Of a stretch of DNA of 64,000 nt, positions 3,365-64,000 are shown piece after piece. Within the stretch, counting starts at the first letter, position 1, and the number at the start of each line of letters is the position of its first letter. This stretch comes from Heterodontus francisci (Eukaryota): the NCBI RefSeq assembly GCF_036365525.1, contig NC_090378.1, forward strand, positions 120,389,593-120,453,592, read 5' to 3'. A program made the translations under genes and the position numbers. The notes under the pieces were generated by a model, which searched no databases, had not been told where the DNA came from, and saw only the letters and a list, made by a program, of their open reading frames with translations.

Positions 3365-3762
3365 TCACAGTCGAATAGCCTGCCATTCTCAACCTCCCGG
3401 CTCACACTTGGAGGAATGAGGCCACTTGGGGAGGGTGGAGCTGTGCCCCAGCCAGAAATAGTGCCTTCAGGAGAGAGATGGAGAGCAGATTGTGGGAGAC
3501 CTGTAGTCTAGACGGGTGACATTTAACCAGTCGATGGCAGGTGCTGAGCCCTTTCCCCGTAAGTATTTTGTAAGTCCTTGGGGAAAGTGGGAGGGGCACT
3601 AGAGTAACACCTTTGTTGCTGCTGAAACTCTTGCTATCTGCTCAGTCATGTCTAATAAACACACAGACAAATCAGACAAACATTAGTCAGTTTTCTGTGG
3701 ATTTTCTGCTGGGTTCAGCTTTAATCAACAGGGTATTGTGGGAGCTCCCGGTTAATAAAAGG

Positions 3763-3966
3763 AAAAGAAAGACTTGTATTTATATCGAGTATTTCACACC
3801 TCAGGACCTCCCAAAGTCATTTACAGACAATGAAGGACTTGTTTAAAGAGCAGTCACTGTTGGAATGTAGGAAATGTGGCAGACAATTTGTGCACAGCAA
3901 GATCCCACAAACAGCAATGAGGTAAATGAACATTTTCAGTGACGTCGGTTCAGAGATAAATATCAG
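3763..3966 (-). mobile_element. Truncated second copy of the same SINE (3' half only)
   Basis: Shares AGAAAGACTTG, CACCTCAGGA, CCCAAAG, TGTGCACAGCAAGATCCCA and GATAAA blocks in the same order as 2966-3120. It stops exactly where the LTR-like element begins. Confidence 0.8.
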
Positions 3967-4918: not shown

Positions 4919-5455
4919 ATAGACCTGAACTCGACCCAAAGACAAAGCAACTGAGAGTTTCCCCAAAACCCTGGAACACTGAAGCCACTGGATTGGGAGC
5001 CCTGCTGTCACTGTTTGTCATCAGAACTTTGACAAGAGATAAGCAGGGAGTGGACAGAGCAGAGTTAAAGCTGGGGGAGGTGGGACCTTGGTGTCTCACT
5101 GTGCTGGTGCTGAGATCAGTTATATCAGAGACTGTGACAGAGACCCAGAGCTCACACTGAGACTGGCAGGAGTCTAGTGAGGGATTTCACTCCATGGAGC
5201 AGGAATGTGACCACAGTCTGCAAACGTCCAGATCTCCTCTACACACTCGGTAAAAGTTGGTTACTTATATCTTGCTGGTTAAAGGGGGAATGTAACTAAA
5301 GAAATACAGCTGGGCACCCTGTTATACACAGTGCTCTTCAATGAACCATTTCATTGACTGCAGCTCCTTTCTAACACCTTCCACTATTCAGCATTTGTGT
5401 TTTAGAAAGTTTCAGTATTTAAAGGATTAGTAACGGAGGATTGAGGTTTACTTAC

Positions 5456-5490
5456 TCAGTCTAAGCTTGGTTCCTTTACCGAACGTAAAC
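5456..5490 (-). CDS. IGKJ: Immunoglobulin light-chain joining (J) segment, kappa / shark type III (NS4)-like, unrearranged
   Basis: The minus strand reads G TTT ACG TTC GGT AAA GGA ACC AAG CTT AGA CTG A|GTAAGT, i.e. FTFGKGTKLRL plus a phase-1 base. It has the F-G-x-G-T-K-L J motif, a perfect donor at 5455-5450 and a 23-RSS directly abutting it. As I recall, FGKGTKLRL(S) is the shark kappa-type J sequence. TCR J segments use 12-RSS and IgH J segments have WGxG. Confidence 0.93.
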
Positions 5491-5529
5491 CACACTGACA
5501 GCTTCCAGTGCAGGGGCTGTACAATATCC
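5491..5529 (-). promoter_or_regulatory. Recombination signal sequence with 23-bp spacer (23-RSS) of the J segment
   Basis: Read on the + strand away from J: heptamer CACACTG at 5491-5497 (6/7 to CACAGTG, CAC intact), a spacer of exactly 23 bp at 5498-5520, and nonamer ACAATATCC at 5521-5529 (7/9 to ACAAAAACC). Confidence 0.9.
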
Positions 5530-6158
5530 TCTGCTCTCTGTTTCACTCACTCACTCTCACCCTCTCTCTGTCTTTCACTGTCACTGTGTCTCTCTCTCTG
5601 TCACTCTTTGCCTGTGTGTATGTGTGTCTCTGTCTCGCACACTCTCTCTATATATATCTATTTGTCTCTGTCTCTATGTGTGCTTCTGTCTGTCTCTGTC
5701 TGTGTGTGTCGTTCACAGTGTGTCACACTCTGTCTCTGCTACTTTGGGTTTCTCTCACATTCTGTCTCTCTCTCATTGTTTTCTCTCACTCTGTCTCTTT
5801 CACTCTCTCATTATGTCCCTCTCTCTCACTCCCTGTTACTCTGTCTCTGTCACACGCTCTCTCTCTCTCACACTCTCTCTCAATCTGTCTCTCTCTTTCT
5901 CTCACTCACTCTGTCTCTCTTTCTCAATCTCTCTCACTCCCTCACTCTGTCTCTCTTTTTCTCCCTCTCACTCTCTCTCTTTCTCTCTCTCTCACTCTCT
6001 CTCATTCAGTCTCACTCTGTCTCTCTTTTTCTCCCTCTCACTATCTCTCTCTTTCTCTCTCTCTCACTCTCTCACTTTGTCTCTCTTTCTCACTCTGTCT
6101 CTCTTTTTCTCCCTCTCACTCTCTCTCTCTCTCACTTTCTCTCTCTCTGTCTCTCACA
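5530..6158. repeat. Degenerate (CT)n/CTCA/CTGT polypyrimidine simple repeat
   Basis: Near-continuous CT, CTCA and CTGT units on the + strand. It produces the S/L-rich spurious ORFs at 5467-6345. Confidence 0.95.
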
Positions 6159-6162
6159 GACT

Positions 6163-6930
6163 GGGATGAATTCTCCCGGTGCCATGGAGACGGGGTTCTC
6201 ATTTGGAGGTTGGGCAGGACTGGGAAAAATACGACGAGCCGTGTCAACATGGCTCCCTGACACATTCCCGCCTCCGGGTTACTTTCCCATGGGTGTACTG
6301 GGAACCGGTCATCTGCTGGCTCCATGGAGATGGGCAGACAATTAGAGCAATGAAGTTCACATTTAGGGGCCATTTTGAGCCGGTGCTGGTATTTTACCAA
6401 CGTCGGAGCGGCCTCCCCACCCCCGAGTGTGGAGGCCGCCAGCTCAATGGAGGAGCCCTCCCGGCAGCAGGCCAGGGGACCATCGGAGACGGAGACTCTA
6501 TGTCCCAATGAGCTACAGGGATGAAAAGCTGCAGTCCCGCCTGTGAATAATCCTGTGGAGGAGTTTCCTAATCCTAACCCTCTTCAACCTGATGGCCCAA
6601 CTGGCTTCAGCCCTTTTTATTTTACTATTCCTCTGCAGGCAGCCGAGGGCATCTCCATGTTGAGGGGCCCTCACTCTCGCCTGCCTGTTTCAGCAGGGCC
6701 CACCTCTCCCGGTGGAGCTGCCAGCCTGACATCACTGTGGGCCCTCTGATTGGGCCTGCAGGCTCGGGAGCCTGACCGCCATCATTAATAGGACAGTGAG
6801 TGTGGAGGTGACCAATTAGGAGGCTGCCTCCCAGAAAGTTGCTCCGGCGAGTGCTGATGACATGGGCAGGCTCGGGACCCTCATATAGGCCAGACGTCAG
6901 AGTCCGAATGTCGACTGGGCCAACCAGCCA
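6163..6930. mobile_element. ~770-bp GC-rich non-coding insertion, probably a non-autonomous DNA transposon (MITE; PIF/Harbinger-like)
   Basis: Sharp compositional boundaries inside a CT tract that continues on both sides. It starts GGGATGAATT and ends ...AACCAGCCA, a weak terminal inverted similarity. There is an internal inverted pair GCGGCCTCC/GGAGGCCGC (~6408-6440). No clear TSD. Confidence 0.45.
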
Positions 6931-7220
6931 TCTCTCTCTCTCACGCTGTCACTCTTGTGCTCTTTCCCTCTGTCTATCTCACTATCTCCCTCTCTCTCTT
7001 TCTCTCACTCTCTCTCTCTCTCCCTCTCTCTATCTCACTCTCTTTCTCTCACTCTTTCTCTCTCTCTATCTGTCTCTCTCTAGCACTTTCTCTCTCTCTC
7101 TAACTGTCTCTCTTTATCTCACTCTCTCCCCCAATGTCTCTCTTTCTGTCATTCTCTCTCTCCCACTGTCTCTGTTTCTCTCTCTCTCCTGCTGTCTCTG
7201 TTTCACTCTCTCTCTCTGTC
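6931..7220. repeat. Degenerate (CT)n simple repeat, continuation of 5530-6158
   Basis: Same unit composition and strand bias as the tract to the left of the insertion. Confidence 0.93.
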
Positions 7221-7368
7221 TGAATTCCATGCTGCTGTGCTTGGGAAAGTTGGGAATTCTACTTGTCGATGATAAATCTTCCAGCTGCTCTTCCCACCAC
7301 ATCAGATGGAAAAGCCTGGAGCCACTCAATTCCTGGAAAATGAAAATCTCCCAGCAAACCGAGCTCAC

Positions 7369-7379
7369 CTGCCTGTGCC
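7369..7379 (-). other. Candidate 11-nt micro-exon
   Basis: The minus strand reads CCCCTCCCCTTTTTTCCAG|GGCACAGGCAG|GTGAGC: a strong polypyrimidine acceptor and a consensus donor 11 nt apart. No transcript evidence. Confidence 0.3.
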
Positions 7380-7472
7380 CTGGAAAAAAGGGGAGGGGTG
7401 TTTCTGTAAATGTGATGTTTCTGTTGCTGACTCTGCTCTTCCTCATGGACCATTTGAAAACAGTGAGTTTCA

Positions 7473-7910
7473 GAGTCAGTGGATCATGTCTACATGGAGT
7501 GGGAGAGGTTGTGGCCCCTGTTCCATTATTTGAACGGGCTGCTCCTCATCCTCTGGTTCTAATTCAGGCCCACGCTCCTGATCTTTGGCCACCCAGTGCA
7601 GAGGGGAGTGGGCAGGTTGGAGGCCCCTCCTCGTGGGTCTGCTCCTGGGCGTGGCCAAGGTGTCCATCCACAGGCCCGAGTTGGATGGGACCTGTGGGGG
7701 TGGTGGCACTGGCTGCCAGTCTCTCTACCATGGCATTGTCCCCACCCGGGTGGCCCTGGAGAAGGAGCAGGGGGTGTCTGCTGGGTCACTTGAGGCCTTC
7801 AGGCTGCAGTGGGCACCACAGGGACAGGAGTGTGTAGTGGATAGTGAAAATAACATCAGGCTTTAATTTGTTCAGTTTGCTTTCTATTTATGATTTCAGT
7901 TTTATTCATT
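7473..7910 (+). mobile_element. 5'-truncated Tx1/L1-clade LINE fragment (ORF2 C-terminus plus T-rich 3' end)
   Basis: Translates as ESVDHVYMEWERLWPLFHYL..LL..W.*F.PTLLIFGHPV (decayed end of a zinc-knuckle region), then after a frameshift LLVGLLLGVAKVSIHR...RVALEKEQ.VS.G.LEAFR.QWAP...ENNIRL* (stop 7864-7866). This is the pattern I recognise for Tx1-type ORF2 ends. A T-rich tail follows. Confidence 0.8.
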
Positions 7911-7925
7911 TCGACACATTTCACA

Positions 7926-8035
7926 ATTGGATTTTGATTGGTGAAAATTGTGTCATCCAGATTGTCCAATCAGATGAGAAGAAACCTGTTTCCATAGTAA
8001 CTGACCTGGGGTGTCTGACCTGGGATGGGGGGTCA
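7926..8035. promoter_or_regulatory. Promoter-like motif cluster: CCAAT boxes, RFX X-box and TGACCT half-sites
   Basis: ATTGG at 7926-7930, TGATTGG at 7935-7941, CCAATCAG at 7966-7973, GTTTCCATAGTAAC at 7988-8001 (matches the 14-bp X-box GTTNCCATRGNAAC), and TGACCTGGG twice (8002, 8016). Function is not shown. Confidence 0.4.
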
Positions 8036-8322
8036 ATAATAATGATCAATAATTAGTCTGTGCTCATGAAGCGACTCCACGAGAACCCAGAGAGAATCGA
8101 ATGAAGCAAAATGTCAAATCTCCAGAGCTGTGAGATTCTCACTGATGAAGACAGCAGCTCCTCGTCCTCTCTAAACTCCTCCATCCTTTCCCAATTCGTC
8201 ACACCGTTCAGGGGAATGTTTCTGTCAACACTCTCATCGACACATGTGGCAGCAATGCACAAAACAGCAAATATTTCCCAGATAGATAAGACAGGAGATT
8301 GAAGCAACTGTTTTAATACACC

Positions 8323-11300
8323 GTCTGTTTATTATATAATAAATATAACTGTGGATGTGTCAGTACAGGAGGTGGGACTATGTCCATTATTATATATTAT
8401 TTATAACTGTGGGATGTGTCAGTACAGGAGGTGGGACTGTGTGTCCATTATTATATATTATATATAACTGTAGGATGTGTCAGTACAGGAGGTGGGACTG
8501 TGTGTCCATTATTATATATTATATATAACTGTAGGATGTGTCAGTACAGGAGGTGGGACAGTGTGTCCATTATTATATATTATATATAACTGTGGGATGT
8601 GTCAGTCCAGGAGGTGGGACTGTGTGTCCATTATTCTTTATTATATATAACTGTGGAATGTGTCAGTGCAGGTTTTGGGACTGTGTGTCCATTATTATAT
8701 ATTATATATAACTGTGGGATGTGTCAGTACCGGAGGTGGGACAGTGTGTCCATTATTATATATTATATATAACTGTGGGATGTGTCAGTGCAGGAAGTGG
8801 GACAGTGTGTCCATTATTTTATATTATATATAACTGTGGGATGTGTCAGTCCAGGAGGTGGGACTGTGTGTCCATTATTATATATTATATATAACTGTGG
8901 GATGTGTCAGTACAGGAGGTGGGACTGTGTGTCCATTATTATATATTATATATAACTGTGGGATGTGTCAGTACAGGAGGTGGGACTGTGTGTCCATTAT
9001 TATATATTATATATAACTGTGGGATGTGTCAGTACAGGAGGTGGGACTGTGCGTCCATTATTATATATTATATATAACTGTGGGATGTGTCAGTACAGGA
9101 GGTGGGACTGTGTGTCCATTATTTTTTATTATATATAACTGTGGAATGTGTCAGTGCAGGTTTTGGGACTGTGTGTTCATTATTATATATTATATTTAAC
9201 TGTGGGATGTGTCAGTGCGGGAGGTGGGACTGTGTGTCCATTATTATATATTATATATATATGTGGAACGTTTCAGTCTAGGAGGTGGGACTGTGCGTCC
9301 ATTATTATATATTATATATAACTGTGGAACGTGTCAGTCGAGGAGGTGGGACTGTGCGTCCATTATTATATATTATATATAACTGTGGGATGTGTCACTG
9401 CGGGAAGTGGGACTGTGTGTCCATTATTATATATTATATATAACTGTGGGATGTGTCAGTACAGGAGGTGGGACTGTGTGTCCATTATTTTTTATTATAT
9501 ATAACTGTGGAATGTGTCAGTGCAGGTTTTGGGACTGTGTGTTCATTATTATATATTATATTTAACTGTGGGATGTGTCAGTGCGGGAGGTGGGACTGTG
9601 TGTCCATTATTATATATTATATATATATGTGGAACGTTTCAGTCTAGGAGGTGGGACTGTGCGTCCATTATTATATATTATATATAACTGTGGAACGTGT
9701 CAGTCGAGGAGGTGGGACTGTGCGCCCATTATTATATATTATATATAACTGTGGAACGTGTCAGTCGAGGAGGTGGGACTGTGCGTCCATTATTATATAT
9801 TATATATAACTGTGTAACGTGTCAGTCGAGGAGGTGGGACTGTGCGTCCATTATTATATATTATAAAAAACTGTGGGATGTGTCAGTACTGGAGGTGTGA
9901 CTGTGCGTCCATTATTATATATTATATATAACTGTAGGATGTGTTAGTACAGGACGTGGGACTGTGTGTCCATTATTATATATTATATATAACTGTTGGA
10001 TGTGTCCGTTCCGGAGGTGGGACTGTGTGACCATTATTATATATTATATATAACTGTGGGATGTGTCAGTACAGGAGGTGGGACTGTGTGTCCATTATTA
10101 TATATTATATATAACTGTGGGATGTGTCAGTGCAGGAGGTGGGACAGTGTGTCCATTATTATATATTATATATAACTGTAGGATGTGTTAGTACAGGACG
10201 TGGGACTGTGTGTCCATTATTATATATTATATATAACTGTTGGATGTGTCCGTTCCGGAGGTGGGACTGTGTGACCATTATTATATATTATATATAACTG
10301 TGGGACGTGTCAGTGCAGGAGGTGGGACAGTGTGTCCATTATTATATATTATATATAACTGTAGGATGTGTTAGTACAGGACGTGGTACTGTGTGTCCAT
10401 TATTATATATTATATATAACTGTTGGATGTGTCCGTTCCGGAGGTGGGACAGTGTGTCCATTATTATATATTATATATAACTGTAGGATGTGTTAGTACA
10501 GGACGTGGGACTGTGTGTCCATTATTATATATTATATATAACTGTGGAACGTGTCAGTCGAGGAGGTGGGACTGTGCGTTCATTATTATTTATTATATAT
10601 AACTGTGGGACGTGTCAGTGCAGGAGGTGGGACAGTGTGTCCATTATTATATATTATATATAACTGTAGGATGTGTTAGTACAGGACGTGGGACTGTGTG
10701 TCCATTATTATATATTATATATAACTGTTGGATGTGTCCGTTCCGGAGGTGGGACTGTGTGACCATTATTATATATTATATATAACTGTGGGATGTGTCA
10801 GTCGAGGAGGTGGGACTGTGTGTCCATTTTTATGTATTATATATAACTGTGGGATGTGTCAGTACCGGAGGTGGGACTGTGTGTCCATTATTTTATATTA
10901 TATATAACTGTGGGATGTGTCAGTACAGGAGGTGGGTCAGTGTGTCCATTATTATATATTATTTATAACTGTGGGATGTGTCAGTACAGGAGGTGGGACT
11001 GTGTGTCCATTATTATATATTATATATAATTGTGGGATGTGTCAGTCCAGGAGGTGGGACTGTGTGTCCATTATTTTAAATTATATATAACTGTGGGATG
11101 TGTCAGTGCAGGAGGTGGGACTGTGTGTCCATTATTATATATTATATATAACTGTGGGATGTGTCAGTACAGGAGGTGGGACTGTGTGTCCATTATTATA
11201 TATTATATATAACTGTGGGATGTGTCAGTACCGGAGGTGGGACAGTGTGTCCATTATTATATATTATATATAACTGTGGGATGTGTCAGTGCAGGAAGTG

Positions 11301-14300
11301 GGACTGTGTGTCCATTATTATATATTATATATAACTGTGGGATGTGTCAGTACAGGAGGTGGGACTGTGTGTCCATTATTATATATTATATATAACTGTG
11401 GGATGTGTCAGTACCGGAGGTGGGACAGTGTGTCCATTATTATATATTATATATAACTGTGGGATGTGTCAGTACCGGAGGTGGGACAGTGTGTCCATTA
11501 TTATATATTATATATAACTGTGGGATGTGTCAGTACCGGAGGTGGGACTGTGAGTCCATTATTCTTTATTATATATATCTGTGGGATGTGTCAGTACAGG
11601 CGGTGGGACTGTGTGTCCATTATTATATATTATATATAACTGTGGGATGTGTCAGTGCGGGAGGTGGGACTGTGTGTCCATTATTATATATTATATATAA
11701 CTGTGGGATGTGTCAGTACAGGAGGTGGTACTGTGTGTCCATTATTATATATTATATATAACTGTGGGATGTGTCAGTGCAGGAAGTGGGACAGTGTGTC
11801 CATTATTATATATTATATATAACTGTGGGATGTGTCAGTCCTGGAGGTGGGACTGTGCGTCCATTATTATATATTATATATAACTGTGGGATGTGTCAGT
11901 ACAGGAGGTGGGACTGCGTGTCCATTATTATATATTATATATAACTGTTGGATGTGTCAGTACAGGAGGTGGGACAGTGTGTCCATTATTATATATTATA
12001 TATAACTGTGGGATGTGTCAGTGCAGGATGTGGGACAGTGTGTCCATTATTATATATTATATATAACAGTGGGATGTGTCAGTACAGGAGGTGGGACTGT
12101 GTGTCCATTATTATTTATTATATATAACTATGGGATGTGTCAATACAGGAGGTGGGACTGTGTGTCCATTATTATATGTTAGATATAACTGTGGGATGTG
12201 TCAGTACAGGAGGTGGGACGGTGTGTCCATTATTATATATTATATATAACTGTGGGATGTGTCAGTACAGGAGGTGGGACGGTGTGTCAATTATTATATG
12301 TTAGATATAACTGTGGGATGTGTCAGTACAGGAGGTGGGACGGTGTGTCCATTATTATATATTATATATAACTGTGGGATGTGTCAGTACAGGAGGTGGG
12401 ACTGTGTTTCCATTATTATTTATTATATATAATTGTGGGATGTGTCAGTACAGGAGGTGGGACGGTGTGTCCATTATTATATGTTAGATATAACTGTGGG
12501 ATGTGTCAGTACAGGAGGTGGGACTGTGTGTCCATTATTATATATTATATATAACTGTGGGATGTGTCAGTACAGGAGGTGGGACTGTGTGTCCATTATT
12601 ATTTATTATATATAACTATGGGATGTGTCAGTACAGGAGGTGGGACTGTGTGTCCATTATTATTTATTATATATAACTATGGGATGTGTCAGTACAGGAG
12701 GTGGGACTGTGCGTCCATTATTATATATTATATATAACTGTGGGATGTGTCAGTGCGGGACGTGGGACTGTGTGTCCATTATTATATATTATATATAACT
12801 GTGGAACGTGTCAGTCGAGGAGGTGGGACTGTGTGTCCATTATTATATATTATATATAACTGTGTAACGTGTCAGTCGAGGAGGTGGGACTGTGCGTCCA
12901 TTATTATATATTATATATAACTGTGGAACATGTCAGTCGAGGAGGTGGGACTGTGCGTCCATTATTATATATTATATATAACTGTGGGATGTGTCAGTAC
13001 AGGAGGTGGGACTGTGTTTCCATTATTATTTATTATATATAATTGTGGGATGTGTCATTACAGGAGGTGGGACGGTGTGTCCATTATTATATGTTAGATA
13101 TAACTGTGGGATGTGTCAGTACAGGAGGTGGGACTGTGTTTCCATTATTATATATTATTTATAAATGTGGGATGTGTCAGTACAGGAGGTGGGACGGTGT
13201 GTCCATTATTATATGTTATATATAACTGTGGGATGTGTCAGTACAGGAGGTGGGACTGTGTGTCAATTATTATTTATTATATATAACTGTGGGACGTGTC
13301 AGTTCAGGAGGTGGGACTGTGTGTCCATTATTATATATTATATATGACTGTGGGATTTGTCAGTACAGGAGGTGGGACTGTGTGTCCATTATTATATATA
13401 ACTGTGGGATGTGTCAGTACAGGAGGTGGGACTGTGTGTCCATTATTATTTATTATATATAACTCTGGGATGTGTCAGTACAGGAGGTGGGACTGTGTGT
13501 CCATTGTTATATATTATATATTATTGTGGGATGTGTCAGTGCAGGAGGTGGGACTGTGTGTCCATTATTATATATAACTGTGGGATGTGTCAGTACAGGA
13601 GGTGGGACTGTGTGTCCATTATTATTTATTATATATAACTCTGGGATGTGTCAGTACAGGAGGTGGGACTGTGTGTCCATTATTATATACAACTGTGGGA
13701 TGTGTCAGTACAGGAGGTGGGACTGTGTGTCCATTATTATATATAACTGTGGGATGTGTCAGTACAGGAGGTGGGACTGTGTGTCCATTATTATATATAA
13801 CTGTGGGATGTGTCAGTACAGGAGGTGGGAATGTGTGTCCATTATTATTTATTATATATAACTCTGGGATGTGTCAGGACAGGAGGTGCGACTGTGTGTC
13901 CATTATTATATATTAGATATAACTGTGGGATGTGTCAGTGCAGGAGGTGGGACTGTGTGTCCATTATTATATATTAGATAAAACTATGGGATGTGTCAGT
14001 ACAGGAGGTGGGACTGTGTGTCCATTATTACATATTAGATATAACTGTGGGATGTGTCATTGCAGGTGGTGGGACTGTGTGTCTATGAGTATATATTATA
14101 TATTATTGTGGGACGTGTCAGTACCGGGGTTTGGACTGTGTGTTCATTATTATATAAAACTGTGGGATGTGTCAGTACAGTAGGTGGGACTGTGTGTCTA
14201 TGAGTATATATTATATATTATTGTGGGACGTGTCAGTACCGGGGTTTGGACTGTGTGTCCATTATTATATATTCTATATAACTGTGGGACATGTCACGAC

Positions 14301-17300
14301 AGGAGGTGGGACTGTGTGTCCATTATTATATATTATATCTAACTGTGGGATGTGTCAGTACAGGAGGTAGGACAGTGTGTCCATTATTATCTATTATATA
14401 TAACTGTGGGATGTGTCAGTACAGGAGGTGGGACAGTGTGTCCATTATTATATATTATATATAACTGTGGGATGTGTCAGTGCAGGAAGTGGGACAGTGT
14501 GTCCATTATTTTATATTATATATTACTGTGGGATGTGTCAGTACAGGAGGTGGGACTGTGTGTCCATTATTATATATTATATATAACTGTGGGATGTGTC
14601 AGTGCAGGAAGTGGGACAGTGTGTCCATTATTTTATATTATATATTACTGTGGGATGTGTCAGTACAGGAGGTGGGACTGTGTGTCCATTATTATTTATT
14701 ATATATAATTGTGGGATGTGTCATTACAGGAGGTGGGACGGTGTGTCCATTATTATATGTTAGATATAACTGTGGGATGTGTCAGTACAGGAGGTGGGAC
14801 TGTGTTTGCATTATTATATATTATTTATAAATGTGGGATGTGTCAGTACAGGAGGTGGGACGGTGTGTCCATTATTATATGTTATATATAACTGTGGGAT
14901 GTGTCAGTACAGGAGGTGGGACTGTGTGTCAATTATTATTTATTATATATAACTGTGGGACGTGTCAGTTCAGGAGGTGGGACTGTGTGTCCATTATTAT
15001 ATATTATATATGACTGTGGGATTTGTCAGTACAGGAGGTGGGACTGTGTGTCCATTATTATATATAACTGTGGGATGTGTCAGTACAGGAGGTGGGACTG
15101 TGTGTCCATTATTATTTATTATATATAACTCTGGGATGTGTCAGTACAGGAGGTAGGACAGTGTGTCCATTATTATCTATTATATATAACTGTGGGATGT
15201 GTCAGTACAGGAGGTGGGAATGTGTGTCCATTATTATTTATTATATATAACTCTGGGATGTGTCAGGACAGGAGGTGCGACTGTGTGTCCATTATTATAT
15301 ATTAGATATAACTGTGGGATGTGTCAGTGCAGGAGGTGGGACTGTGTGTCCATTATTATATATTAGATAAAACTATGGGATGTGTCAGTACAGGAGGTGG
15401 GACTGTGTGTCCATTATTACATATTAGATATAACTGTGGGATGTGTCATTGCAGGTGGTGGGACTGTGTGTCTATGAGTATATATTATATATTATTGTGG
15501 GACGTGTCAGTACCGGGGTTTGGACTGTGTGTTCATTATTATATAAAACTGTGGGATGTGTCAGTACAGTAGGTGGGACTGTGTGTCTATGAGTATATAT
15601 TATATATTATTGTGGGACGTGTCAGTACCGGGGTTTGGACTGTGTGTCCATTATTATATATTCTATATAACTGTGGGACATGTCACGACAGGAGGTGGGA
15701 CTGTGTGTCCATTATTATATATTATATCTAACTGTGGGATGTGTCAGTACAGGAGGTAGGACAGTGTGTCCATTATTATCTATTATATATAACTGTGGGA
15801 TGTGTCAGTACAGGAGGTGGGACAGTGTGTCCATTATTATATATTATATATAACTGTGGGATGTGTCAGTGCAGGAAGTGGGACAGTGTGTCCATTATTT
15901 TATATTATATATTACTGTGGGATGTGTCAGTACAGGAGGTGGGACTGTGTGTCCATTATTATATATTATATATAACTGTGGGATGTGTCAGTGCAGGAAG
16001 TGGGACAGTGTGTCCATTATTTTATATTATATATTACTGTGGGATGTGTCAGTACAGGAGGTGGGACTGTGTGTCCATTATTATTTATTATATATAATTG
16101 TGGGATGTGTCATTACAGGAGGTGGGACGGTGTGTCCATTATTATATGTTAGATATAACTGTGGGATGTGTCAGTACAGGAGGTGGGACTGTGTTTGCAT
16201 TATTATATATTATTTATAAATGTGGGATGTGTCAGTACAGGAGGTGGGACGGTGTGTCCATTATTATATGTTATATATAACTGTGGGATGTGTCAGTACA
16301 GGAGGTGGGACTGTGTGTCAATTATTATTTATTATATATAACTGTGGGACGTGTCAGTTCAGGAGGTGGGACTGTGTGTCCATTATTATATATTATATAT
16401 GACTGTGGGATTTGTCAGTACAGGAGGTGGGACTGTGTGTCCATTATTATATATAACTGTGGGATGTGTCAGTACAGGAGGTGGGACTGTGTGTCCATTA
16501 TTATTTATTATATATAACTCTGGGATGTGTCAGTACAGGAGGTGGGACTGTGTGTCCATTGTTATATATTATATATTATTGTGGGATGTGTCAGTGCAGG
16601 AGGTGGGACTGTGTGTCCATTATTATATATAACTGTGGGATGTGTCAGTACAGGAGGTGGGACTGTGTGTCCATTATTATTTATTATATATAACTCTGGG
16701 ATGTGTCAGTACAGGAGGTGGGACTGTGTGTCCATTATTATATACAACTGTGGGATGTGTCAGTACAGGAGGTGGGACTGTGTGTCCATTATTATATATA
16801 ACTGTGGGATGTGTCAGTACAGGAGGTGGGACTGTGTGTCCATTATTATATATAACTGTGGGATGTGTCAGTACAGGAGGTGGGAATGTGTGTCCATTAT
16901 TATTTATTATATATAACTCTGGGATGTGTCAGGACAGGAGGTGCGACTGTGTGTCCATTATTATATATTAGATATAACTGTGGGATGTGTCAGTGCAGGA
17001 GGTGGGACTGTGTGTCCATTATTATATATTAGATAAAACTATGGGATGTGTCAGTACAGGAGGTGGGACTGTGTGTCCATTATTACATATTAGATATAAC
17101 TGTGGGATGTGTCATTGCAGGTGGTGGGACTGTGTGTCTATGAGTATATATTATATATTATTGTGGGACGTGTCAGTACCGGGGTTTGGACTGTGTGTTC
17201 ATTATTATATAAAACTGTGGGATGTGTCAGTACAGTAGGTGGGACTGTGTGTCTATGAGTATATATTATATATTATTGTGGGACGTGTCAGTACCGGGGT

Positions 17301-53300: not shown

Positions 53301-56300
53301 TAGATATAACTGTGGGATGTGTCAGTGCAGGAGGTGGGACTGTGTGTCCATTATTATATATTAGATATAACTATGGGATGTGTCAGTACAGGAGGTGGGA
53401 CTGTGTGTCCATTATTACATATTAGATATAACTGTGGGATGTGTCATTGCAGGTGGTGGGACTGTGTGTCTATGAGTATATATTATATGTTATTGTGGGA
53501 CGTGTCAGTACCGGGGTTTGGACTGTGTGTCCATTATTATATATAACTGTGGGATGTGTCGGTACAGTAGGTGGGACTGTGTGTCTATGAGTATATATTA
53601 TATATTATTGTGGGACGTGTCAGTACCGGGGTTTGGACTGTGTCTCCATTATTATATATTCTATATAACTGCGGGACATGTCACTACAGGAGGTGGGACT
53701 GTGTGTCCATTATTATATATTATATCTAACTGTGGGATGTGTCAGTACAGGAGGTAGGACAGTGTGTCCATTATTATCTATTATATCTAACTGTGGGATG
53801 TGTCAGTACAGGAGGTGGGACTGTGTGTCCATTATTATATATTATATATAACTGTGGGATGTGTCAGTACCGGAGGTGGGACAGTGTGTCCATTATTATA
53901 TATTTTATGTAACTGTGGGATGTGTCAGTGCAGGAGGTGGGACAGTGTGTCCATTATTATATATTATATATAACTGTGGGATGTGTCAGTACAGGAGGTG
54001 GGACTGTGTGTCCATTATTATTTATTATATAAAACTGTGGTATGTGTCAGTACAGGAGGTGGGACTGTGTGTCCATTATTATATATCATATATAACTGTG
54101 GGATGTGTCAGTACAGGAGGTGGGACTGTGTGTCCATTATTTTTTATTATATATAACTGTGGAATGTGTCAATGCAGGTTTTGGGACTGTGTGTCCATTA
54201 TTATATATTATATATAACTGTGGGAAGTGTCAGTACCGGAGGTGGGACAGTGTGTCCATTATTATATATTATATATAACTGTGGGATGTGTCAGTGCAGG
54301 AAGTGGGACAGTGTGTCCATTATTTTATATTATATATAACTGTGGGATGTGTCAGTGCAGGAGGTGGGACTGTTTGTCCATTATTATTTATTATATATAA
54401 CTGTGGGATGTGTCAGTACAGGCGGTGGGACTGTGCGTCCATTATTATATATTATATATAATTGTGGGATGTGTCAGTGCAGGAGGTGGGACTGTGTGTC
54501 CATTATTATATATTATATATAACTGTGGGACGTGTCATTACAGGAGGTGGGACATGTGTCCATTATTATATATTATATATAACTGTAGGATGTGTTAGTA
54601 CAGGAGGTAGGACTGTGTTTCCATTATTATTTATTATATATAATTGTGGGATGTGTCAGTACAGGAGGTGGGACGGTGTGTCCATTATTATATGTTATAT
54701 ATAACTGTGGGATGTGTCAGTACAGGAGGTGGGACTGTGTGTCAATTATTATTTATTATATATAACTGTGGGACGTGTCAGTTCAGGAGGTGGGACTGTG
54801 TGTCCATTATTATATATTATATATGATTGTGGGATGTGTCAGTACAGGAGGTGGGTCTGTGTGTCCATTATTATATATTATATATAACTGTGGGATGTGT
54901 CAGTACAGGAGGTGGGACTGTGTGTCCATTATTATTTATTATATAAAACTGTGGGATGTGTCAGTACAGGAGGTGGGACTGTGTGTCCATTATTATATAT
55001 CATATATAACTGTGGGATGTGTCAGTACAGGAGGTGGGACTGTGTGTCCATTATTTTTTATTCTATATAACAGTGGAATGTGTCAATGCAGGTTTTGGGA
55101 CTGTGTGTCCATTATTATATATTATATATAACTGTGGGATGTGTCAGTACCGGAGGTGGGACAGTGTGTCCATTATTATATATTATATATAACTGTGGGA
55201 TGTGTCAGTGCAGGAAGTGGGACAGTGTGTCCATTATTATATATTATATATAACTGTGGGATGTGTCAGTACAGGAGGTGGGACTGTGTGTCCATTATTA
55301 TTTATTATATATAACTGTGAGATGTGCCAGTACAGGAGGTGGGACTGTGCGTCCATTATTATATATTATATATAATTGTGGGATGTGTCAGTGCAGGAGG
55401 TGGGACTGTGTGTCCATTATTATTTATTATATATAACTGTGGGACGTGTCATTACAGGAGGTGGGACATGTGTCCATTATTATATATTATATATAACTGT
55501 AGGATGTGTTAGTACAGGAGGTGGGACTGTGTTTCCATTATTATTTATTATATATAATTGTGGGATGTGTCAGTACAGGAGGTGGGACGGTGTGTCCATT
55601 ATTATATGTTATATATAACTGTGGGATGTGTCAGTACAGGAGGTGGGACTGTGTTTCCATTATTATATATTATATATAAATGTGGGATGTGTCAGTACAG
55701 GAGGTGGGACGGTGTGTCCATTATTATATGTTATATATAACTGTGGGATGTGTCAGTACAGGAGGTGGGACTGTGTGTCAATTATTATTTATTATATATA
55801 ACTGTGGGACGTGTCAGTTCAGGAGGTGGGACTGTGTGTCCATTATTATATATTATATATGATTGTGGGATGTGTCAGTACAGGAGGTGGGACTGTGTGT
55901 CCATTATTATCTATAACTGTGGGATGTGTCAGTACAGGAGGTGGGACTGTGTGTCCATTATTATTTATTATATATAACTCTGGGATGTGTCAGTACAGGA
56001 GGTGGGACTGTGTTTCCATTGTTATATATTATACATTATTGTGGGATGTGTCAGTGCAGGAGGTGGGACTGTGTGTCCTTTATTATATATAACTGTGGGA
56101 TGTGTCAGTACAGGAGGTGGGACTGTGTGTCCATTATTATTTATTATATATAACTCTGGGATGTGTCAGTACAGGAGGTGGGACTGTGTGTCCATTATTA
56201 TATATAACTGTGGGATGTGTCAGTACAGGAGGTGGGACTGTGTGTCCATTATTATATATAACTGTGGGATGTGTCAGTACAGGAGGTGGGACTGTGTGTC

Positions 56301-59300
56301 CATTATTATTTATTATATAAAACTCTGGGATGTGTCAGTACAGGAGGTGGGACTGTGTGTCCATTGTTATATATTATATATTATTGTGGGATGTGTCAGT
56401 GCAAGAGGTGGGACTGTGTGTCCATTATTATATATAACTGTGGAATGTGTCAGTACAGGAGGTGGGACTGTGTGTCCATTATTATATATAAGTGTGGGAT
56501 GTGTCAGTACAGGAGGTGGGACTGTGTGTCCATTATTATATATAACTGTGGGATGTGTCAGTACAGGAGGTGGGACTGTGTGTCCATTATTATATATAAC
56601 TGTGGGATGTGTCAGTACAGGAGGTGGGACTGTGTGTCCATTATTATTTATTATATATAACTCTGGGATGTGTCAGTACAGGAGGTGCGACTGTGTGTCC
56701 ATTATTATATATTAGATATAACTGTGGGATGTGTCAGTGCAGGAGGTGGGACTGTGTGTCCATTATTATATATTAGATATAACTATGGGATGTGTCAGTA
56801 CAGGAGGTGGGACTGTGTGTCCATTATTACATATTAGATATAACTGTGGGATGTGTCATTGCAGGTGGTGGGACTGTGTGTCTATGAGTATATATTATAT
56901 GTTATTGTGGGACGTGTCAGTACCGGGGTTTGGACTGTGTGTCCATTATTATATATAACTGTGGGATGTGTCGGTACAGTAGGTGGGACTGTGTGTCTAT
57001 GAGTATATATTATATATTATTGTGGGACGTGTCAGTACTGGGGTTTGGACTGTGTGTCCATTATTATATATTCTATATAACTGTGGGACATGTCACTACA
57101 GGAGGTGGGACTGTGTGTCCATTATTATATATTATATCTAACTGTGGGATGTGTCAGTACAGGAGGTAGGACAGTGTGTCCATTATTATCTATTATATAT
57201 AACTGTGGGATGTGTCAGTACAGGAGGTGGGACTGTGTGTCCATTATTATATATTATATATAACTGTGGGATGTGTCAGTACCGGAGGTGGGACAGTGTG
57301 TCCATTATTATATATTTTATGTAACTGTGGGATGTGTCAGTGCAGGAAGTGGGACAGTGTGTCCATTATTATATATTATATATAACTGTGGGATGTGTCA
57401 GTACAGGAGGTGGGACTGTGTGTCCATTATTATTTATTATATAAAACTGTGGGATGTGTCAGTACAGGAGGTGGGACTGTGTGTCCATTATTATATATCA
57501 TATATAACTGTGGGATGTGTCAGTACAGGAGGTGGGACTGTGTGTCCATTATTTTTTATTATATATAACTGTGGAATGTGTCAATGCAGGTTTTGGGACT
57601 GTGTGTCCATTATTATATATTATATATAACTGTGGGATGTGTCAGTACCGGAGGTGGGACAGTGTGTCCATTATTATATATTATATATAACTGTAGGATG
57701 TGTCAGTGCAGGAAGTGGGACAGTGTGTCCATTATTTTATATTATATATAACTGTGGGATGTGTCAGTACAGGAGGTGGGACTGTGTGTCCATTATTATT
57801 TATTATATATAACTGTGGGATGTGTCAGTACAGGAGGTGGGACTGTGTGTCCATTATTATATATTATATATATCTGTGGGATGTGTCAGTACAGGAGGTG
57901 GGACTGTGTGTCCATTATTTTTTATTATACATAACTGTGGAATGTGTCAGTGCAGGTTTTGGGACTGTGTGTTCATTATTATATATTATATTTAACTGTG
58001 GGATGTGACAGTGCGGGAGGTGGGTCTGTGCGTCCATTATTATATATTATATATAACTGTGGAACGTGTCAGTCGAGGAGGTGGGACTGTGCGTCCATTA
58101 TTATACATTATATATAACTGTGGAACGTGTCATTCGAGGAGGTGGGACTGTGCGTCCATTATTGTACATTATATATAACTGTGGAAATTGTCAGTCGAGG
58201 AGGTGGGACTGTGCGTCCATTATTATATATTATATATTACTGTGGAACGTGTCAGTCGAGGAGGTGGGAATGTGCGTCCATTATTATATATTATATATAA
58301 CTGTGGAACGTGTCAGTCGAGGAGGTGGGACTGTGCGTCCATTATTATATATTATATATAACTGTGGAACGTGTCAGTCGAGGAGGTGGGACTGTGCGTC
58401 CTTTATTATATATTAAAAATAACTGTGGAACGTGTCAGTCGAGGAGGTGGGACTGTGCGTCCATTATTATATATTATATATAACTGTGGAACGTGTCAGT
58501 CGAGGAGGTGGGACTGTGCCTCCATTATTATATATTATATATAATTGTGGGATGTGTCAGTGCAGGAGGTGGGACTGTGCGTCCATTATTCTTTATTATA
58601 TATAACTGTGGGACGTGTCAGTACAGGAGGTGGGACAGTGTGTCCATTATTTTATATTATATATAACTGTAGGATGTGTTAGTACAGGAGGTGGGACTGT
58701 GTGTCAATTATTATATATTATATATAACTGTGGAACGTGTCAGTCGAGGAGGTGGGACTGTGCGTCCTTTATTATATATTATATATAACTGTGGAACGTG
58801 ACAGTCGAGGAGGTGGGACTGTGTATCCATTATTATATATTATATATAACTGTGGGACGTGTCAGTGCAGGAGGTGGGACTGTGTGTCGATTATTATATA
58901 TTATATATGATTGTGGGATGTGTCAGTACAGGAGGTGGGACTGTGTGTCCATTATTATATATAACTGTGGGATGTGTCAGTACAGGAGGTAGGACTGTGT
59001 GTCCATTGTTATATATTATATATTATTATGGGATGTGTCAGTACAGGAGGTGGGACTGTGTGTCCATTGTTATATATTATATATTATTGTGGGATGTGTC
59101 AGTACAGGAGGTGGGACTGTGTGTCCATTATTATATATAACTGTGGGATGTGTCAGTACAGGAGGTGGGACTGTGTGTCCATTGTTATATATTATATATT
59201 ATTGTGGGATGTGTCAGTACAGGAGGTGGGACTGTGTGTCCATTGTTATATATTATATATTATTGTGGGATGTGTCAGTACAGGAGGTGGGACTGTGTGT

Positions 59301-62300
59301 CCATTATTATATATAACTGTGGGATGTGTCAGTACAGGAGGTGGGACTGTGTGTCCATTGTTATATATTATATATTATTGTGGGATGTGTCAGTACAGGA
59401 GATGGGACTGTGTGTCCATTATTATATATAACTGTGGGATGTGTCAGTACAGGAGGTGGGACTGTGTGTCCATTATTATTTATTATATATAACTCTGGGA
59501 TGTGTCAGTACAGGAGGTGGGACTGTGTGTCCATTGTTATATATTATATATTATTGTGGGATGTGTCAGTGCAGGAGGTGGGACTGTGTGTCCATTATTA
59601 TATATTAGATATAACTGTGGGATGTGTCAGTGCAGGAGGTGGGACTGTGTGTCCATTATTATACATTAGATATAACTGTGGGATGTGTCAGTACAGGAGG
59701 TGGGACTGTGTGTCCATTGTTATATATTATATATTATGGTGGGATGTGTCAGTACAGGAGGTGGGGCAGTGTGTCCATTATTATATATTATATATAAATG
59801 TGGGATGTGTCATTGCAGGTGGAGGGACTGTGTGTCTGTTATTATATATTATATCTAACTGTGGGACATGTCACTACAGGAGGTGGGACTGTGTGTTTAT
59901 TTTTATATATTATATCTAACTTTGGGACGTGTCAGTACCAGAGGTGGGACTGTGTGTCTATTATTATATATAACTGTGGGATGTGTCAGTACAGGAGGTA
60001 GGACAGTGTGTCCATTATTATATATTATATATAAATGTGGGATGTGTCATTGCAGGTGGTGGGACTGTTTGTCCGTTATTATATATTATATCTAACTGTG
60101 GGATGTGTCAATACAGGAGGTGGGACTTTGTGTCCATTATTATTTATTATATATAACTGTGGGATGTGTCAGTGCGGGAGGTGGGACTGTGTGTCCATTA
60201 TTATATATTATCTCTAACTGTGGGATGTGTCAGTACAGGAGGTGGGACTGTGTGTCCATTATTATATATTATATATAACTGTGGGATGTGTCATTGCAGG
60301 AGGTGGGACTGTGTGTCCATTATTCGATATTATATATAACTGTGGGATGTGTCAGTACCGGAGGTGGGACTGTGTGTCCATTATCATATATTATATATAA
60401 TTGTGGGATGTGTCAGTGCAGTAGGTGGGACTGTGTGTCCATTATTATATATTATATGTAACTGTAGGATGTGTTAGTACAGGAGGTGGGAATGTGTTTC
60501 CATTATTATTTATTATATATAACTGTGGGACGTGTCAGTACAGGAGGTGGGACAGTGTGTCCATTATTATATATTATATATAACTGTAGGATGTGTTAGT
60601 ACAGGAGGTGGGACTGTGTTTCCATTGTTATTTATTATATATAATTGTGGGATGTGTCAGTACAGGAAGTGGGACTGTGTTTCCATTATTATTTATTATA
60701 TATAATTGTGGGATGTGTCAGTACAGGAGGTGGGACGGTGTGTCCATTATTATATGTTATATATAACTGTGGGATGTGTCAGTACAGGAGGTGGGACTGT
60801 GTGTCAATTATTATTTATTATATATAACTGTGGGACGTGTCAGTGCAGGAGGTTGGACTGTGTGTCCATTATTATATATTATATATGATTGTGGGATGTG
60901 TCAGTACAGGAGGTGGGACTGTGTGTCCATTATTATATATAACTGTGGGATGTGTCAGTACAGGAGGTGGGACTGTGCGTCCATTATTATATATTATATA
61001 TAATTGTGGAACGTGTCAGTCGAGGAGGTGGGAATGTGCGTCCATTATTATATATTATATATAACTGTGGAACGTGTCAGTCGAGGAGGTGGGACTGTGC
61101 GTCCATTATTATATATTATATATAACTGTGGAATGTGTCAGTCGAGGAGGTGGGACTGTGCGTCCATTATTATATATTATATATAACTGTGGAACGTGTC
61201 AGTCGAGGAGGTGGGACTGTGCGTCCATTATTATATATTATATATAACTGTGGAACGTGTCAGTCGAGGAGGTGGGACTGTGCGTCCATTATTATATATT
61301 ATATATAACTGTGGAATGTGTCAGTCGAGTAGGTGGGACTGTGCGTCCATTATTATATATTATATATAATTGAGGGATGTGTCAGTGCAGGAGGTGGGAC
61401 TGTGTGTCCATTATTATTTGTTATATATAACTGTGGGACGTGTCAGTACAGGAGGTGGGACAGAGTGTCCATTATTTTATATTTTATATAACTGTAGGAT
61501 GTGTTAGTACAGGAGGTGGGACTGTGTTTCCATTATTATTTATTATATATAACTGTGGGAGGTGTCAGTACAGGAGGTGGGACGGTGTGTCCATTATTAT
61601 ATGTTAGATATAACTGTGGGATGTGTCAGTACAGGAGGTGGGACTGTGTGTCAATTATTATTTATTATATATAAATGTGGGACGTGTCAGTGCAGGAGGT
61701 GGGACTGTGTGACCATTATTATAAATTATATATGATTGTGGGATGTGTCAGTACAGGAGGTGGGACTGTGTGTCCATTATTATATATAACTGTGGGATGT
61801 GTCAGTACAGGAGGTGGGACTGTGTGTCCATTATTATTTATTATATATATCTCTGGGATGTGTCAGTACAGGAGGTGGGACTGTGTGTCCATTGTTATAT
61901 ATTATATATTATTGTGGGATGAGTCAGTGCAGGAGGTGGGACTGTGTGTCCATTATTATACATTAGATATAACTGTGGGATGTGTCAGTACAGGAGGTGG
62001 GACTGTGTGTCCATTGTTATATATTATATATTATTGTGGGATGTGTCAGTACAGGAGGTGGGACCGTGTGTCCATTATTATATATAACTGTGGGATGTGT
62101 CAGTACAGGAGGTGGGACAGTGTGTCCATTATTATATATTATATATAAATGTGGGATGTGTCATTGCAGGTGGTGGGACCGTGTGTCCGTTATTATATAT
62201 TATATATAAATGTGGGATGTGTCATTGCAGGTGGTGGGACTGTGTGTCTGTTATTATATATTATATCTAACTGTGGGACATGTCACTACAGGAGGTGGGA

Positions 62301-64000
62301 CTGTGTGTTTATTTTTATATATTATATCTAACTTTGGGACGTGTCAGTACCAGAGGTGGGACTGTGTGTCCATTATTATATATAACTGTGGGATGTGTCA
62401 GTACAGGAGGTAGGACAGTGTTTCCATTATTATATATTATATATAAATGTGGGATGTGTCATTGCAGGTGGTGGGTCTGTGTGTCCGTTATTTTATATTA
62501 TATCTAACTGTGGGATGTGTCAATACAGGAGGTGGGACTTTGTGTCTATTATTATTTATTATATATAACTGTGGGATGTTTCAGTACCGGAGGTGGGACT
62601 GTGTGTCCATTATCATATATTATATATAATTGTGGGATGTGTCAGTACAGGAGGTGGGACTGTGTGTCCATTATTATATATTATATATAACTGTGGGATG
62701 TGTCAGTACCGGAGGTGGGACTGTGTGTCCATTATCATATATTATATATAATTGTGGGATGTGTCAGTGCAGGAGGTGGGACTGTGTGTCCATTAATATA
62801 TATTATATATAACTGTAGGATGTGTTAGTACAGGAGGTGGGACTGTGTTTCCATTATTATTTATTATATATAACTGTGGGATGTGTCAGGACACGAGGTG
62901 GGACTGTGTTTCCATTATTATTTGTTATATATAATTGTGGGATGTGTCAGTACAGGAGGTGGGACGGTGTGTCCATTATTATATGTTATATATACCTGTG
63001 GGATGTGTCAGTACAGGAGGTGGGACTGTGTGTCAATTATTATTTATTATATATAACTGTGGGACGTGTCAGTGCAGGAGGTGGGACTGTGTGTCCATTA
63101 TTATATATTATATATGATTGTGGGATGTGTCAGTACAGGAGGTGGGACTGTGTGTCCATTATTATATATAACTGTGGGATGTGTCAGTACTGGAGGTGGG
63201 ACAGTGTGTCCATTATTATTTATTATATATAACTCTGGGATGTGTCAGTACAGGAGGTGGGACTGTGTATCCATTGTTATACATTATATATTACTGTGGG
63301 ATGTGTCAGTGCAGGAGGTGGGACTGTGTTTCCATTATTATTTATTATATATAACTCTGGGATGTGTCAGTACAGGAGGTGGGACGGTGTGTCCATTATT
63401 ATATGTTATATATACCTGTGGGATGTGTCAGTACAGGAGGTGGGACTGTGTGTCAATTATTATTTATTATATATAACTGTGGGACGTGTCAGTGCAGGAG
63501 GTGGGACTGTGTGTCCATTATTATATATTATATATGATTGTGGGATGTGTCAGTACAGGAGGTGGGACTGTGTGTCCATTATTATATATAACTCTGGGAT
63601 GTGTCAGTACTGGAGGTGGGACAGTGTGTCCATTATTATTTATTATATATAACTCTGGGATGTGTCAGTACAGGAGGTGGGACTGTGTATCCATTGTTAT
63701 ACATTATATATTACTGTGGGATGTGTCAGTGCAGGAGGTGGGACTGTGTTTCCATTATTATTTATTATATATAACTCTGGGATGTGTCAGTACAGGAGGT
63801 GGGACTGTGTGTCCATTGTTATATGTTATATATTATTGTGGGATGTGTCAGGGCAGGAGGTGGGACTATGTGTCCATTATTATATATAACTGTGGGATGT
63901 GTCAGTACAGGAGGTGGGACTGTGTGTCCATTATTATATATAACTGTGGGATGTGTCAGTACAGGAGGTGGGACTGTGTGTCCATTATTATTTATTATAT
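8323..64000 (+). repeat. Large tandem repeat (satellite / expanded minisatellite), 61-bp monomer, roughly 900 copies, extending past the window end
   Basis: Consensus AACTGTGGGATGTGTCAGTACAGGAGGTGGGACTGTGTGTCCATTATTATATATTATATAT (unit starts at 8893 and 8954 are 61 bp apart). There are 54-bp variants missing 7 bp of the AT tract and rare 60-bp units. All units are head-to-tail, with no inversion or foreign insertion seen by eye. Copy number is estimated as length/61. Confidence 0.99.

Follow-up and report, generated by a model that had tools for sequence, protein, structure and literature searches.

Antibody clusters of sharks serve as the textbook case of rearrangement over a few hundred bases, and the authors of a study of nurse shark IgH miniloci argue that these may bypass locus contraction; in the mouse, joining over ~100 kb or more needs locus contraction or looping (PMC2435157). 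In nurse shark kappa genes, V and J are separated by about 500 bp (502-524 bp in NS4, as given in PMC2193156), and PMC5985310 assigns kappa loci a 12/23 RSS pattern. The stretch of horn shark (Heterodontus francisci) DNA analysed here, 64,000 nucleotides in length (the window), holds the J segment of an intact shark Ig kappa V-J-C cluster which, by its C domain, RSSs and somatic joining, belongs to the chondrichthyan Ig kappa (type III/NS4) genes, with a 12-bp spacer in the RSS of V and a 23-bp spacer in that of J. The overall reading, which we hold with considerable confidence, is that of an intact cluster in which V and J lie 102.5 kb apart across a kappa-specific satellite (Table 1) and V is joined to J in RNA, likely through deletion of the whole array by RAG.

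Table 1. Features of the kappa cluster; plain numbers are window positions, and positions outside the window are given on the chromosome (C8).
Feature	Position	Strand	Remarks
C-kappa exon, intact, 108 codons + stop	G000:C8:120386992-120387320		Pfam C1-set; ~2.3-2.6 kb left of window
J-C intron, in-window portion	1..5455	-	leads to intact C-kappa exon
J-kappa segment FTFGKGTKLRL, gt splice donor	5456..5490	-	motif scan
J 23-bp-spacer RSS	5491..5529	+	1 mismatch in heptamer, 2 in nonamer
J-side non-satellite tail, 2.8 kb	5530..8328	.	CT-rich microsatellites, without V
61-bp satellite array, in-window portion	8329..64000	-	922 copies, 91% matches
V 12-RSS, perfect	C8:120497585-120497612	-	directly past far array end, outside window
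V-kappa exon, open	C8:120497613-120497914	-	outside window
Leader exon, intact	C8:120498101-120498149	-	186-nt intron between leader and V
Octamer-like element, 7/8	~107 bp before leader ATG	-	outside window

An earlier note on this DNA had described a minus-strand J whose 23-RSS ends at 5529, followed by a tail lacking both V and octamer and then by nothing except satellite, and each of these observations held. The motif scan and tblastn found no V in either orientation within 5530-8328, the motif scan detected no V-type W-Q or YYC context in positions 1-8400, and the only match that tblastn reported for the V of this cluster anywhere in the window was a chance one of 8 residues (E 2.5). The sole exact octamer of the window, at 4629, lies inside the J-C intron, and the satellite runs from the end of the tail to the window end. 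Thus, the description of a J without a V is correct within the window but not beyond it: the array continues for 44 kb past the right edge, to about G000:C8:120497580, where inspection beyond its far end, as the note had advised, recovered both a V and a 12-RSS, both intact. The whole array comprises 99.7 kb, or ~1,630 units, in a single orientation and without N. The idea of a J-C pair orphaned through loss of its V at the satellite, for which the missing V inside the window speaks, is refuted, given that V, RSS and C are all intact, that the V with its perfect 12-RSS stands in the right orientation at the array end, and that the 28 V, J and C of the chromosome alternate. The C exon, located 7.7 kb behind J, is 95% identical to a named horn shark kappa protein and 73-90% identical to those of other sharks (31 matches, pairwise identity); in a structure database search, the antibody chains among the 60 best matches were all mammalian or engineered.

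Comparison with the paralogous clusters, also proposed in the note, revealed the same V-array-J arrangement in all 28 kappa clusters of this chromosome, which carries 28 V, 28 J and 28 C in alternating order. The V-J intervals, all of them gapless from end to end, range from 7.5 to 217 kb (median 49 kb), so that the inflated V-J interval suggested earlier is real, is at 102.5 kb larger here than the >58 kb of the note, and has counterparts in every cluster; a V within ~0.4-0.5 kb of its J, as described for shark miniloci, occurs in 0 of the 28. Array lengths vary from 3.4 to 211 kb and add up to 1.49 Mb, and the J-side tails of the paralogous clusters are 2.7-5.4 kb long. In every cluster the first satellite unit begins at +5 from the V nonamer; it has 0-5 mismatches in all but one of the 28 clusters and 13 in the remaining one, and the nonamer of the J 23-RSS is identical in all 28. 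The satellite is nearly confined to these genes: 3,219 of the 3,229 genome-wide matches to an exact 34-mer and 11,713 of the 11,781 matches to a 17-mer fall inside kappa V-J intervals. Close paralogues differ in array length (19.8 vs 25.6 kb, 61.9 vs 77.2 kb, and 3.4 vs 11.3 kb) with flank differences of just 0-0.3%, 0.4-1.2% and 0.8-2.6%, respectively. Several arrays contain LINE-like insertions and multi-kb internal duplications, and reverse-strand satellite cover is ~2% or less, that is, there are no inverted satellite blocks. A search with a joined-gene pattern found no germline-joined kappa gene, its single match being a lambda-type gene on another contig. A J-like match on contig C2 was considered as an ancestral short cluster and rejected, since the ~20 kb to its left and right contain neither V nor C.

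The RNA data come from one sample, probably the assembled animal, and consist of contigs, not reads. These contigs skip the 186-nt leader intron and end at the RSS. Ten loose ends of RNA contigs were located at V, six of them in a zone unique to the V of this cluster; all six proved to be J, with six different junctions, and all fit the cluster's own J. Four of the joins have the Phe-type J start, shared by 11 of the 28 J, and two have the variant with the Leu codon CTT, common to 4 of the 28, among them this J; under random J choice, a fit of 6/6 would arise with a chance of about 5e-4. Accordingly, this V likely uses its own J, a conclusion that falls short of proof because the CTT variant is common to three other clusters as well. 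Since the V-unique contigs are joined to J, with 6/6 fitting the own J, deletion across the entire array in B cells, with ~100 kb cut out, is likely as well, and the suggestion that the array silences rearrangement fails in the face of spliced, J-joined contigs unique to this V. The V-J joins that the earlier note wished to see in RNA were thus identified for this V, albeit in contigs of a single sample; the use of this J by V segments of other clusters, the third option of the note, may occur but is not needed, all six joins from the V side fitting the own J. On the other haplotype the allele of this cluster could be shorter, and the V-RSS and array junctions and the array length are given as assembled, DNA run X3 providing no cover of the V end and RSS. 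A ranking of V usage against array length was attempted and rejected, given that contig depth cannot rank genes and that three variants match no germline V.

The long intervals might be artefacts, with arrays over-expanded or clusters mis-joined via the shared satellite. Satellites are hard to assemble and, as measured by k-mer sharing between arrays, the pairs 6/12, 9/23, 10/22 and 11/21 have 97-99% of array 150-mers in common, along with near-identical flanks (one 10-kb flank is 100% identical), and the flanks of two more cluster pairs agree within 0.3%, so that some clusters may be false duplicates. However, no interval contains N, all 28 clusters have their V-side junction at one and the same position, and the J-side junction of this cluster recurs in 6 of the 10 clusters listed. 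The array under study has at most 1% of its 150-mers in common with any other array, 75% of its 300-mers have no earlier copy within it, and the RNA joins this V to the J type that the assembly places across the array. When one member of each of the six near-identical pairs is dropped, the median over the 22 remaining clusters is still 49 kb, and we regard an artefact as very unlikely. Somewhat less remote, if still improbable, is that V segments are also joined to the J of the neighbouring downstream cluster, so that the clusters act in part as a single large locus. From the V of cluster 3 to the J of cluster 2 the distance is 105 kb, and from the V of cluster 25 to the J of cluster 26 it is 107 kb, similar to the 102.5 kb found here and below the intervals of 124 and 217 kb, and the orientation permits deletion. 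Closeness, then, cannot keep the clusters to themselves, because some foreign J are as near as a V's own. Another loose end that carries a J (run X8, place 1555), of a type other than that of this cluster, is ambiguous: its best reading is a mutated V from cluster 4 or 26 joined to the J of that same cluster, but it could be an inter-cluster join. Against such joining stand the six joins from this V, all compatible with the own J, and a named horn shark kappa protein, which the V of clusters 11/21 or 19/25 fit equally (94/100) and whose Phe-type J start fits 11/21; in the nurse shark IgH data of PMC2435157, inter-locus joining is rare (1 of 58 clones).

Another explanation, to which we give limited credence, is that the array is a selected spacer that makes V-J joining slower or rations it, so that only a few clusters rearrange in each cell (allelic and isotype exclusion), or guards the kappa genes from germline joining, with its many cryptic 23-RSS-like motifs on the same strand as possible decoys. 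The array is kept in 28/28 clusters, always abuts the V RSS and is almost confined to kappa clusters, and no germline-joined kappa gene was found here; PMC2193156 describes five independent germline joins in the nurse shark, with its 500-bp intervals, and horn shark type III genes as all split. A 23-RSS-like motif with 4 mismatches is present in the consensus unit (p 0.014 in a test against 5,000 shuffles that was chosen post hoc), 54 sites in this array have 3 mismatches to the 23-RSS, equal to the RSS of J itself, CAC outnumbers GTG on the gene strand by 7,739 to 57, and a cryptic 23-RSS of the mouse gamma-satellite is cleavable by RAG according to PMC2193808. On the other hand, array length varies 60-fold, between close paralogues too, the 100-kb array blocks neither joining nor expression of this V, and a single origin suffices for its presence in all clusters. 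Inverted satellite blocks, the expected trace of germline V-to-decoy inversion, are lacking, and the cryptic nonamer is without the central A run that RAG needs. Furthermore, horn shark type I genes are reported to be split too (PMC5192425, PMC2193156), so the split state does not require this array. A bolder version, in our view unlikely, is that the satellite is dedicated DNA excised by every kappa B cell, its length and thousands of one-way cryptic signals throttling V-J joining and thereby controlling allelic exclusion and V usage, while the cluster genes use mammal-like long-range RAG scanning. A role of the unit as a CTCF site, by analogy with V-proximal sites in the mouse, was rejected, the match to the CTCF consensus being 11/14 on the strand that points away from J (p 0.058, 5,000 shuffles).

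In the best reading, the array is most likely a passenger, tolerated because every expressed allele would have lost it; neutrality is the default assumption here, and retention in every cluster could also mean selection. In basking shark, a catshark and zebra shark, gene models that run on past the V RSS match the translated first unit in 10, 11, 8, 7 and 7 of 15 residues; among the 11 models tested, 3 scored under 6/15 and two only 6. Given that these are automated protein models with uncertain introns, the comparison bears on the unit core and not on copy number. The likeness of the unit to the sequence flanking the V RSS in other sharks makes amplification in place likely. Under this scenario, the 61-bp unit would be the ancestral sequence just behind the V nonamer, a single in-place amplification would have occurred in one ancestral cluster that was later multiplied, and the individual arrays would afterwards have grown or shrunk through multi-kb duplications. 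Since the V 12-RSS and the J 23-RSS face each other, joining would be deletional and would release a circle of ~102.5 kb, although no such circle was observed; at this distance, the RSSs would pair via chromatin looping or scanning, not through closeness.

Satellite-filled long V-J intervals in shark kappa genes were not found in the literature covered, Rast 1994 and the Hsu-lab kappa papers lying outside its scope. Here, the V-J gaps of an entire shark isotype measure 7.5-217 kb, and at least one cluster, that with the 102.5-kb gap, undergoes joining and is expressed; sharks therefore likely pair RSSs over mammalian-scale distances. The clusters amount to a natural experiment, with 22-28 nearly identical substrates whose V-J distance differs ~30-fold, and 1.5 Mb of satellite is confined to DNA that would be somatically deleted. 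Compared to the nurse shark NS4 genes, the V-J distance in these horn shark type III kappa genes is greater by a factor of ~15 to 420, and a locus-specific satellite fills it; furthermore, NS4 has germline-joined members as described in PMC2193156, whereas none were found in horn shark kappa here. Like the kappa satellite with its putative 23-RSS-like motif, the mouse gamma-satellite carries such a motif in the unit of a tandem repeat but, as described in PMC2193808, it makes up ~6% of the mouse genome and is not tied to an Ig gene, whereas the kappa satellite lies inside rearranging genes and is at most a putative target of RAG. Nurse shark IgH miniloci, as presented in PMC2435157, similarly comprise multiple clusters spaced by ~100 kb or more; each of them rearranges internally, as the cluster studied here probably does, but their segments are ~400 bp apart, whereas here the distances within clusters overlap those between clusters. 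The mammalian translocon Ig loci share with this locus the joining over ~100 kb or more; in contrast to them, each unit here has one V and one J, and the distance consists of satellite rather than of further segments, so that it adds no combinatorial diversity.

The V gene expected in the neighborhood of this J segment is located beyond the satellite. Within the window, which spans C8:120389593-120453592, we recovered the arrangement described in the earlier note, namely the J segment with its 23-RSS, the lack of a V in the 2.8 kb behind J, where CT microsatellites are found instead, and the 61-bp tandem array extending to the right edge. When the region was extended beyond the window, by 50 kb on the left and 150 kb on the right, the array was found to end ~44 kb past this edge, and the remaining parts of the cluster were located. 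The order of elements is leader-V-12RSS, 99.7 kb of satellite, a 2.8 kb non-satellite tail, 23RSS-J and C, and the V-J distance is 102,530 bp. The proposal that this is an orphan J-C unit that lost its V has to be abandoned because an open V, a perfect 12-RSS and an intact C flank the array and J. The J-C intron contains, in window positions 1-2500, a decayed LINE fragment, which we take to be of the CR1 type, with dispersed matches elsewhere.

Features of the kappa cluster (C8, chromosome NC_090378.1)
Feature	Coordinates	Location	Strand	Basis
Octamer-like promoter element		past leader exon	strand of J	sequence
Leader exon		past 186-nt intron	strand of J	sequence
V-leader intron (186 nt)			strand of J	sequence
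Open V exon		directly past 12-RSS, beyond array	strand of J	sequence
Perfect 12-RSS	C8:120497585-120497612	directly past array end	strand of J	
61-bp array	window 8329 to right end and beyond			
23-RSS of J	window 5491-5529			
J segment (FTFGKGTKLRL)	window 5456-5490		minus	
Intact C exon	C8:120386992-120387320	7.7 kb behind J		sequence

The V exon matches the Pfam V-set domain and the C exon the C1-set domain. A protein named horn shark kappa light chain matches the C exon at 95% identity, and automated models bearing this name match it at 96-100%, so that the isotype is type III/NS4/kappa; the type III light chain was reportedly first described by Rast et al. in 1994. The three names are synonyms for one shark isotype (PMC5985310, PMC5192425).

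In genome searches, V and C were each matched 28 times and J 29 times. Apart from one stray J fragment on C2, all of these matches map to C8 between 115.7 and 124.8 Mb, where 15 clusters have one orientation and 13 the opposite one. Every one of the 28 V exons is open, with no more than one mismatch in its 12-RSS. A leader exon was found in 27 clusters, and the J heptamer is identical in all but one, where it differs by a single base. By every tested feature except a short V-J interval, the cluster under study belongs to the shark kappa family.

Several individual loci depart from this pattern. Cluster 13 (L024), with open V and J, lacks the third-position C of CAC in the J heptamer and is likely disabled by this change, and in clusters 7 and 16 (L075, L076) framework 3 of the V gene has an additional cysteine (TRCTG) and the nonamer is changed at one base. 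The same two departures from the nonamer consensus (window 5521-5529 in the present cluster) occur in all 28 J signals, so that a weak-looking signal is fixed across the family. The C2 fragment (L029, G000:C2:125446227-125446355) is a genuine orphan J-kappa and retains a decayed 23-RSS and ~250 bp of flank among LINE-like pieces, with no V or C within ~20 kb. A germline-joined V-J exon with an unusually short CDR3 (YCYAASIFG) is located at G000:C23:54902806-54902846 (L238) and is presumably of the lambda type.

All 28 V-J intervals were taken whole for array analysis, and none contains an N. Each consists of a single array of 3.4-211 kb, with all units on the same strand, and a tail of 2.7-5.4 kb behind it; the inflated interval that the earlier note put at >58 kb is thus real, and V-J distances across the family are 7.5-217 kb, with a median of 49 kb. 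Together the arrays comprise 1.49 Mb, or ~24,500 units with 1.7-6.1% divergence from a single consensus, and the first unit begins 5 bp past the V nonamer in every cluster, with a poor fit in one. A satellite-filled V-J interval is the rule for the kappa isotype in this genome, and the satellite is almost confined to these intervals, which contain 3,219 of the 3,229 genome matches to an exact 34-mer and 11,713 of the 11,781 to an exact 17-mer. A CTCF-like reading of the unit failed when tested. LINE reverse transcriptase-like, non-satellite insertions of 1-3.5 kb interrupt the arrays of clusters 7, 9, 10, 13, 22, 23 and 28, those of clusters 7 and 9 having some sequence in common. The J-side tails of clusters 2, 4, 6, 9, 12, 20, 23, 26 and 28 contain a second, GA/CA-rich minisatellite of 72-74 bp (e.g., L015:1917-2647), whose 12-RSS-like motifs, with 3 mismatches, point toward the J 23-RSS from ~0.2-1.1 kb away. 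These 59 sites, none of them in the cluster under study, are possibly decoys or chance products of CA repeats.

At most 1% of the 150-mers of the present array are shared with any other array, 75% of its 300-mers have not occurred before within it, and it contains multi-kb internal duplications; judged by this variation and by the insertions in other arrays, the satellite has the look of evolved DNA. Four cluster pairs show 97-99% array sharing with near-identical flanks, and flanks of two further pairs agree within 0.3%; these six pairs, none of which includes the present cluster, may be recent duplications or false ones; if each pair is counted once, 22 clusters remain and the median V-J distance is unchanged. 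An inverted ~430 kb block with three clusters is present twice, at C8 119.10-119.53 Mb and 122.82-123.24 Mb (L233, L234; clusters 9-11 and 21-23), the flanks of the two copies being 99.8-100% identical. In clusters 6 and 12, the flanks are nearly identical and the intervals equally long; both cases are either very recent duplications or false assembly duplicates.

Four runs from one sample, guessed to be RNA, were mapped as contigs on the V gene. Added up over the contigs, depth on the V and leader exons exceeds that on the leader intron by orders of magnitude; this intron is skipped at GT..AG ends, and depth drops at the RSS, so the runs behave as RNA. The loose ends of contigs at the 3' end of V consist of J sequence. 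Mapping of the V end at 99% identity used three of the four runs plus a DNA run that gave no contig cover at this V end, and listed 10 loose ends. Six lie at places 1541-1548 along the mapped V-gene stretch, where the tested 31-mers occur in none of the other 27 V, and all six continue into J with different junction letters. The Phe-type J start, present in 11 of the 28 J copies, is seen in four of the six, and the CTT variant, present in 4 of 28, in the other two; this combination has a probability near 5e-4 under random J choice; the J of the upstream neighbor, which is nearer (88.7 kb) than the cluster's own, lacks the CTT variant. The remaining four comprise two upstream V variants, one from the DNA run and one with a different J type (run X8, place 1555). 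The best explanation of the latter is a V of cluster 4 or 26 that has mutated and is joined to its own J, but it could also be an inter-cluster join. In the contigs of this sample, the V under study is joined and expressed, most likely with its own J. Facing 12/23 signals are joined by deletion under the V(D)J rules, and this step would accordingly release a 102.5-kb circle. The second haplotype could hold a shorter allele.

The suggestion that the array silences rearrangement does not survive the six J-joined contigs unique to this V. Joining across 100 kb, together with the rapid change in array length between close paralogues, fits a tolerated passenger located in DNA that is deleted in expressing cells, and both observations speak against a functional array. 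There is a real, if thinner, case for function: every kappa cluster has kept the array, which is nearly absent from the rest of the genome; a search for germline-joined kappa genes in the H. francisci genome found none, compared with five independent germline joins in nurse shark (PMC2193156); the unit holds a 23-RSS-like motif (p 0.014, in a test chosen after the fact), with CAC almost only on the strand facing the J signal; and, by analogy, cryptic signals in mouse gamma-satellite can be cleaved by RAG (PMC2193808).

With respect to origin, we compared the translated first unit with automated protein models from other sharks that read through the V RSS and show the core of the unit, not its copy number. 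Right after the translated RSS, 10 of 15 residues are identical in a basking shark model, 11, 8 and 7 in catshark models and 7 in a zebra shark model; eight of the 11 tested models, one of them from horn shark, scored at least 6. The core is thus likely, on this protein-level resemblance, to be ancestral flank of the V-kappa RSS that was amplified in place. A single amplification in one ancestral cluster followed by cluster duplication would be the simplest history because all arrays have a common consensus and start point. The horn shark and nurse shark kappa families expanded separately (PMC2193156).

In a mostly listing-level literature search with incomplete coverage of light-chain papers, neither satellite-filled nor long V-J intervals turned up as described for shark kappa clusters, and a genome-consortium preprint surveyed Ig loci by V genes only, without naming H. 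francisci in its main text (PMC13320880). The finding is real, and the long, satellite-filled interval is a variant of known shark kappa clusters for which no earlier report was found. The V-J interval of the same isotype in nurse shark is 502-524 bp (PMC2193156), in contrast to 7.5-217 kb in H. francisci. Shark miniloci have been argued to bypass the looping needed in mammals (PMC2435157), whereas by V-J distance the horn shark kappa cluster resembles the mammalian loci instead.
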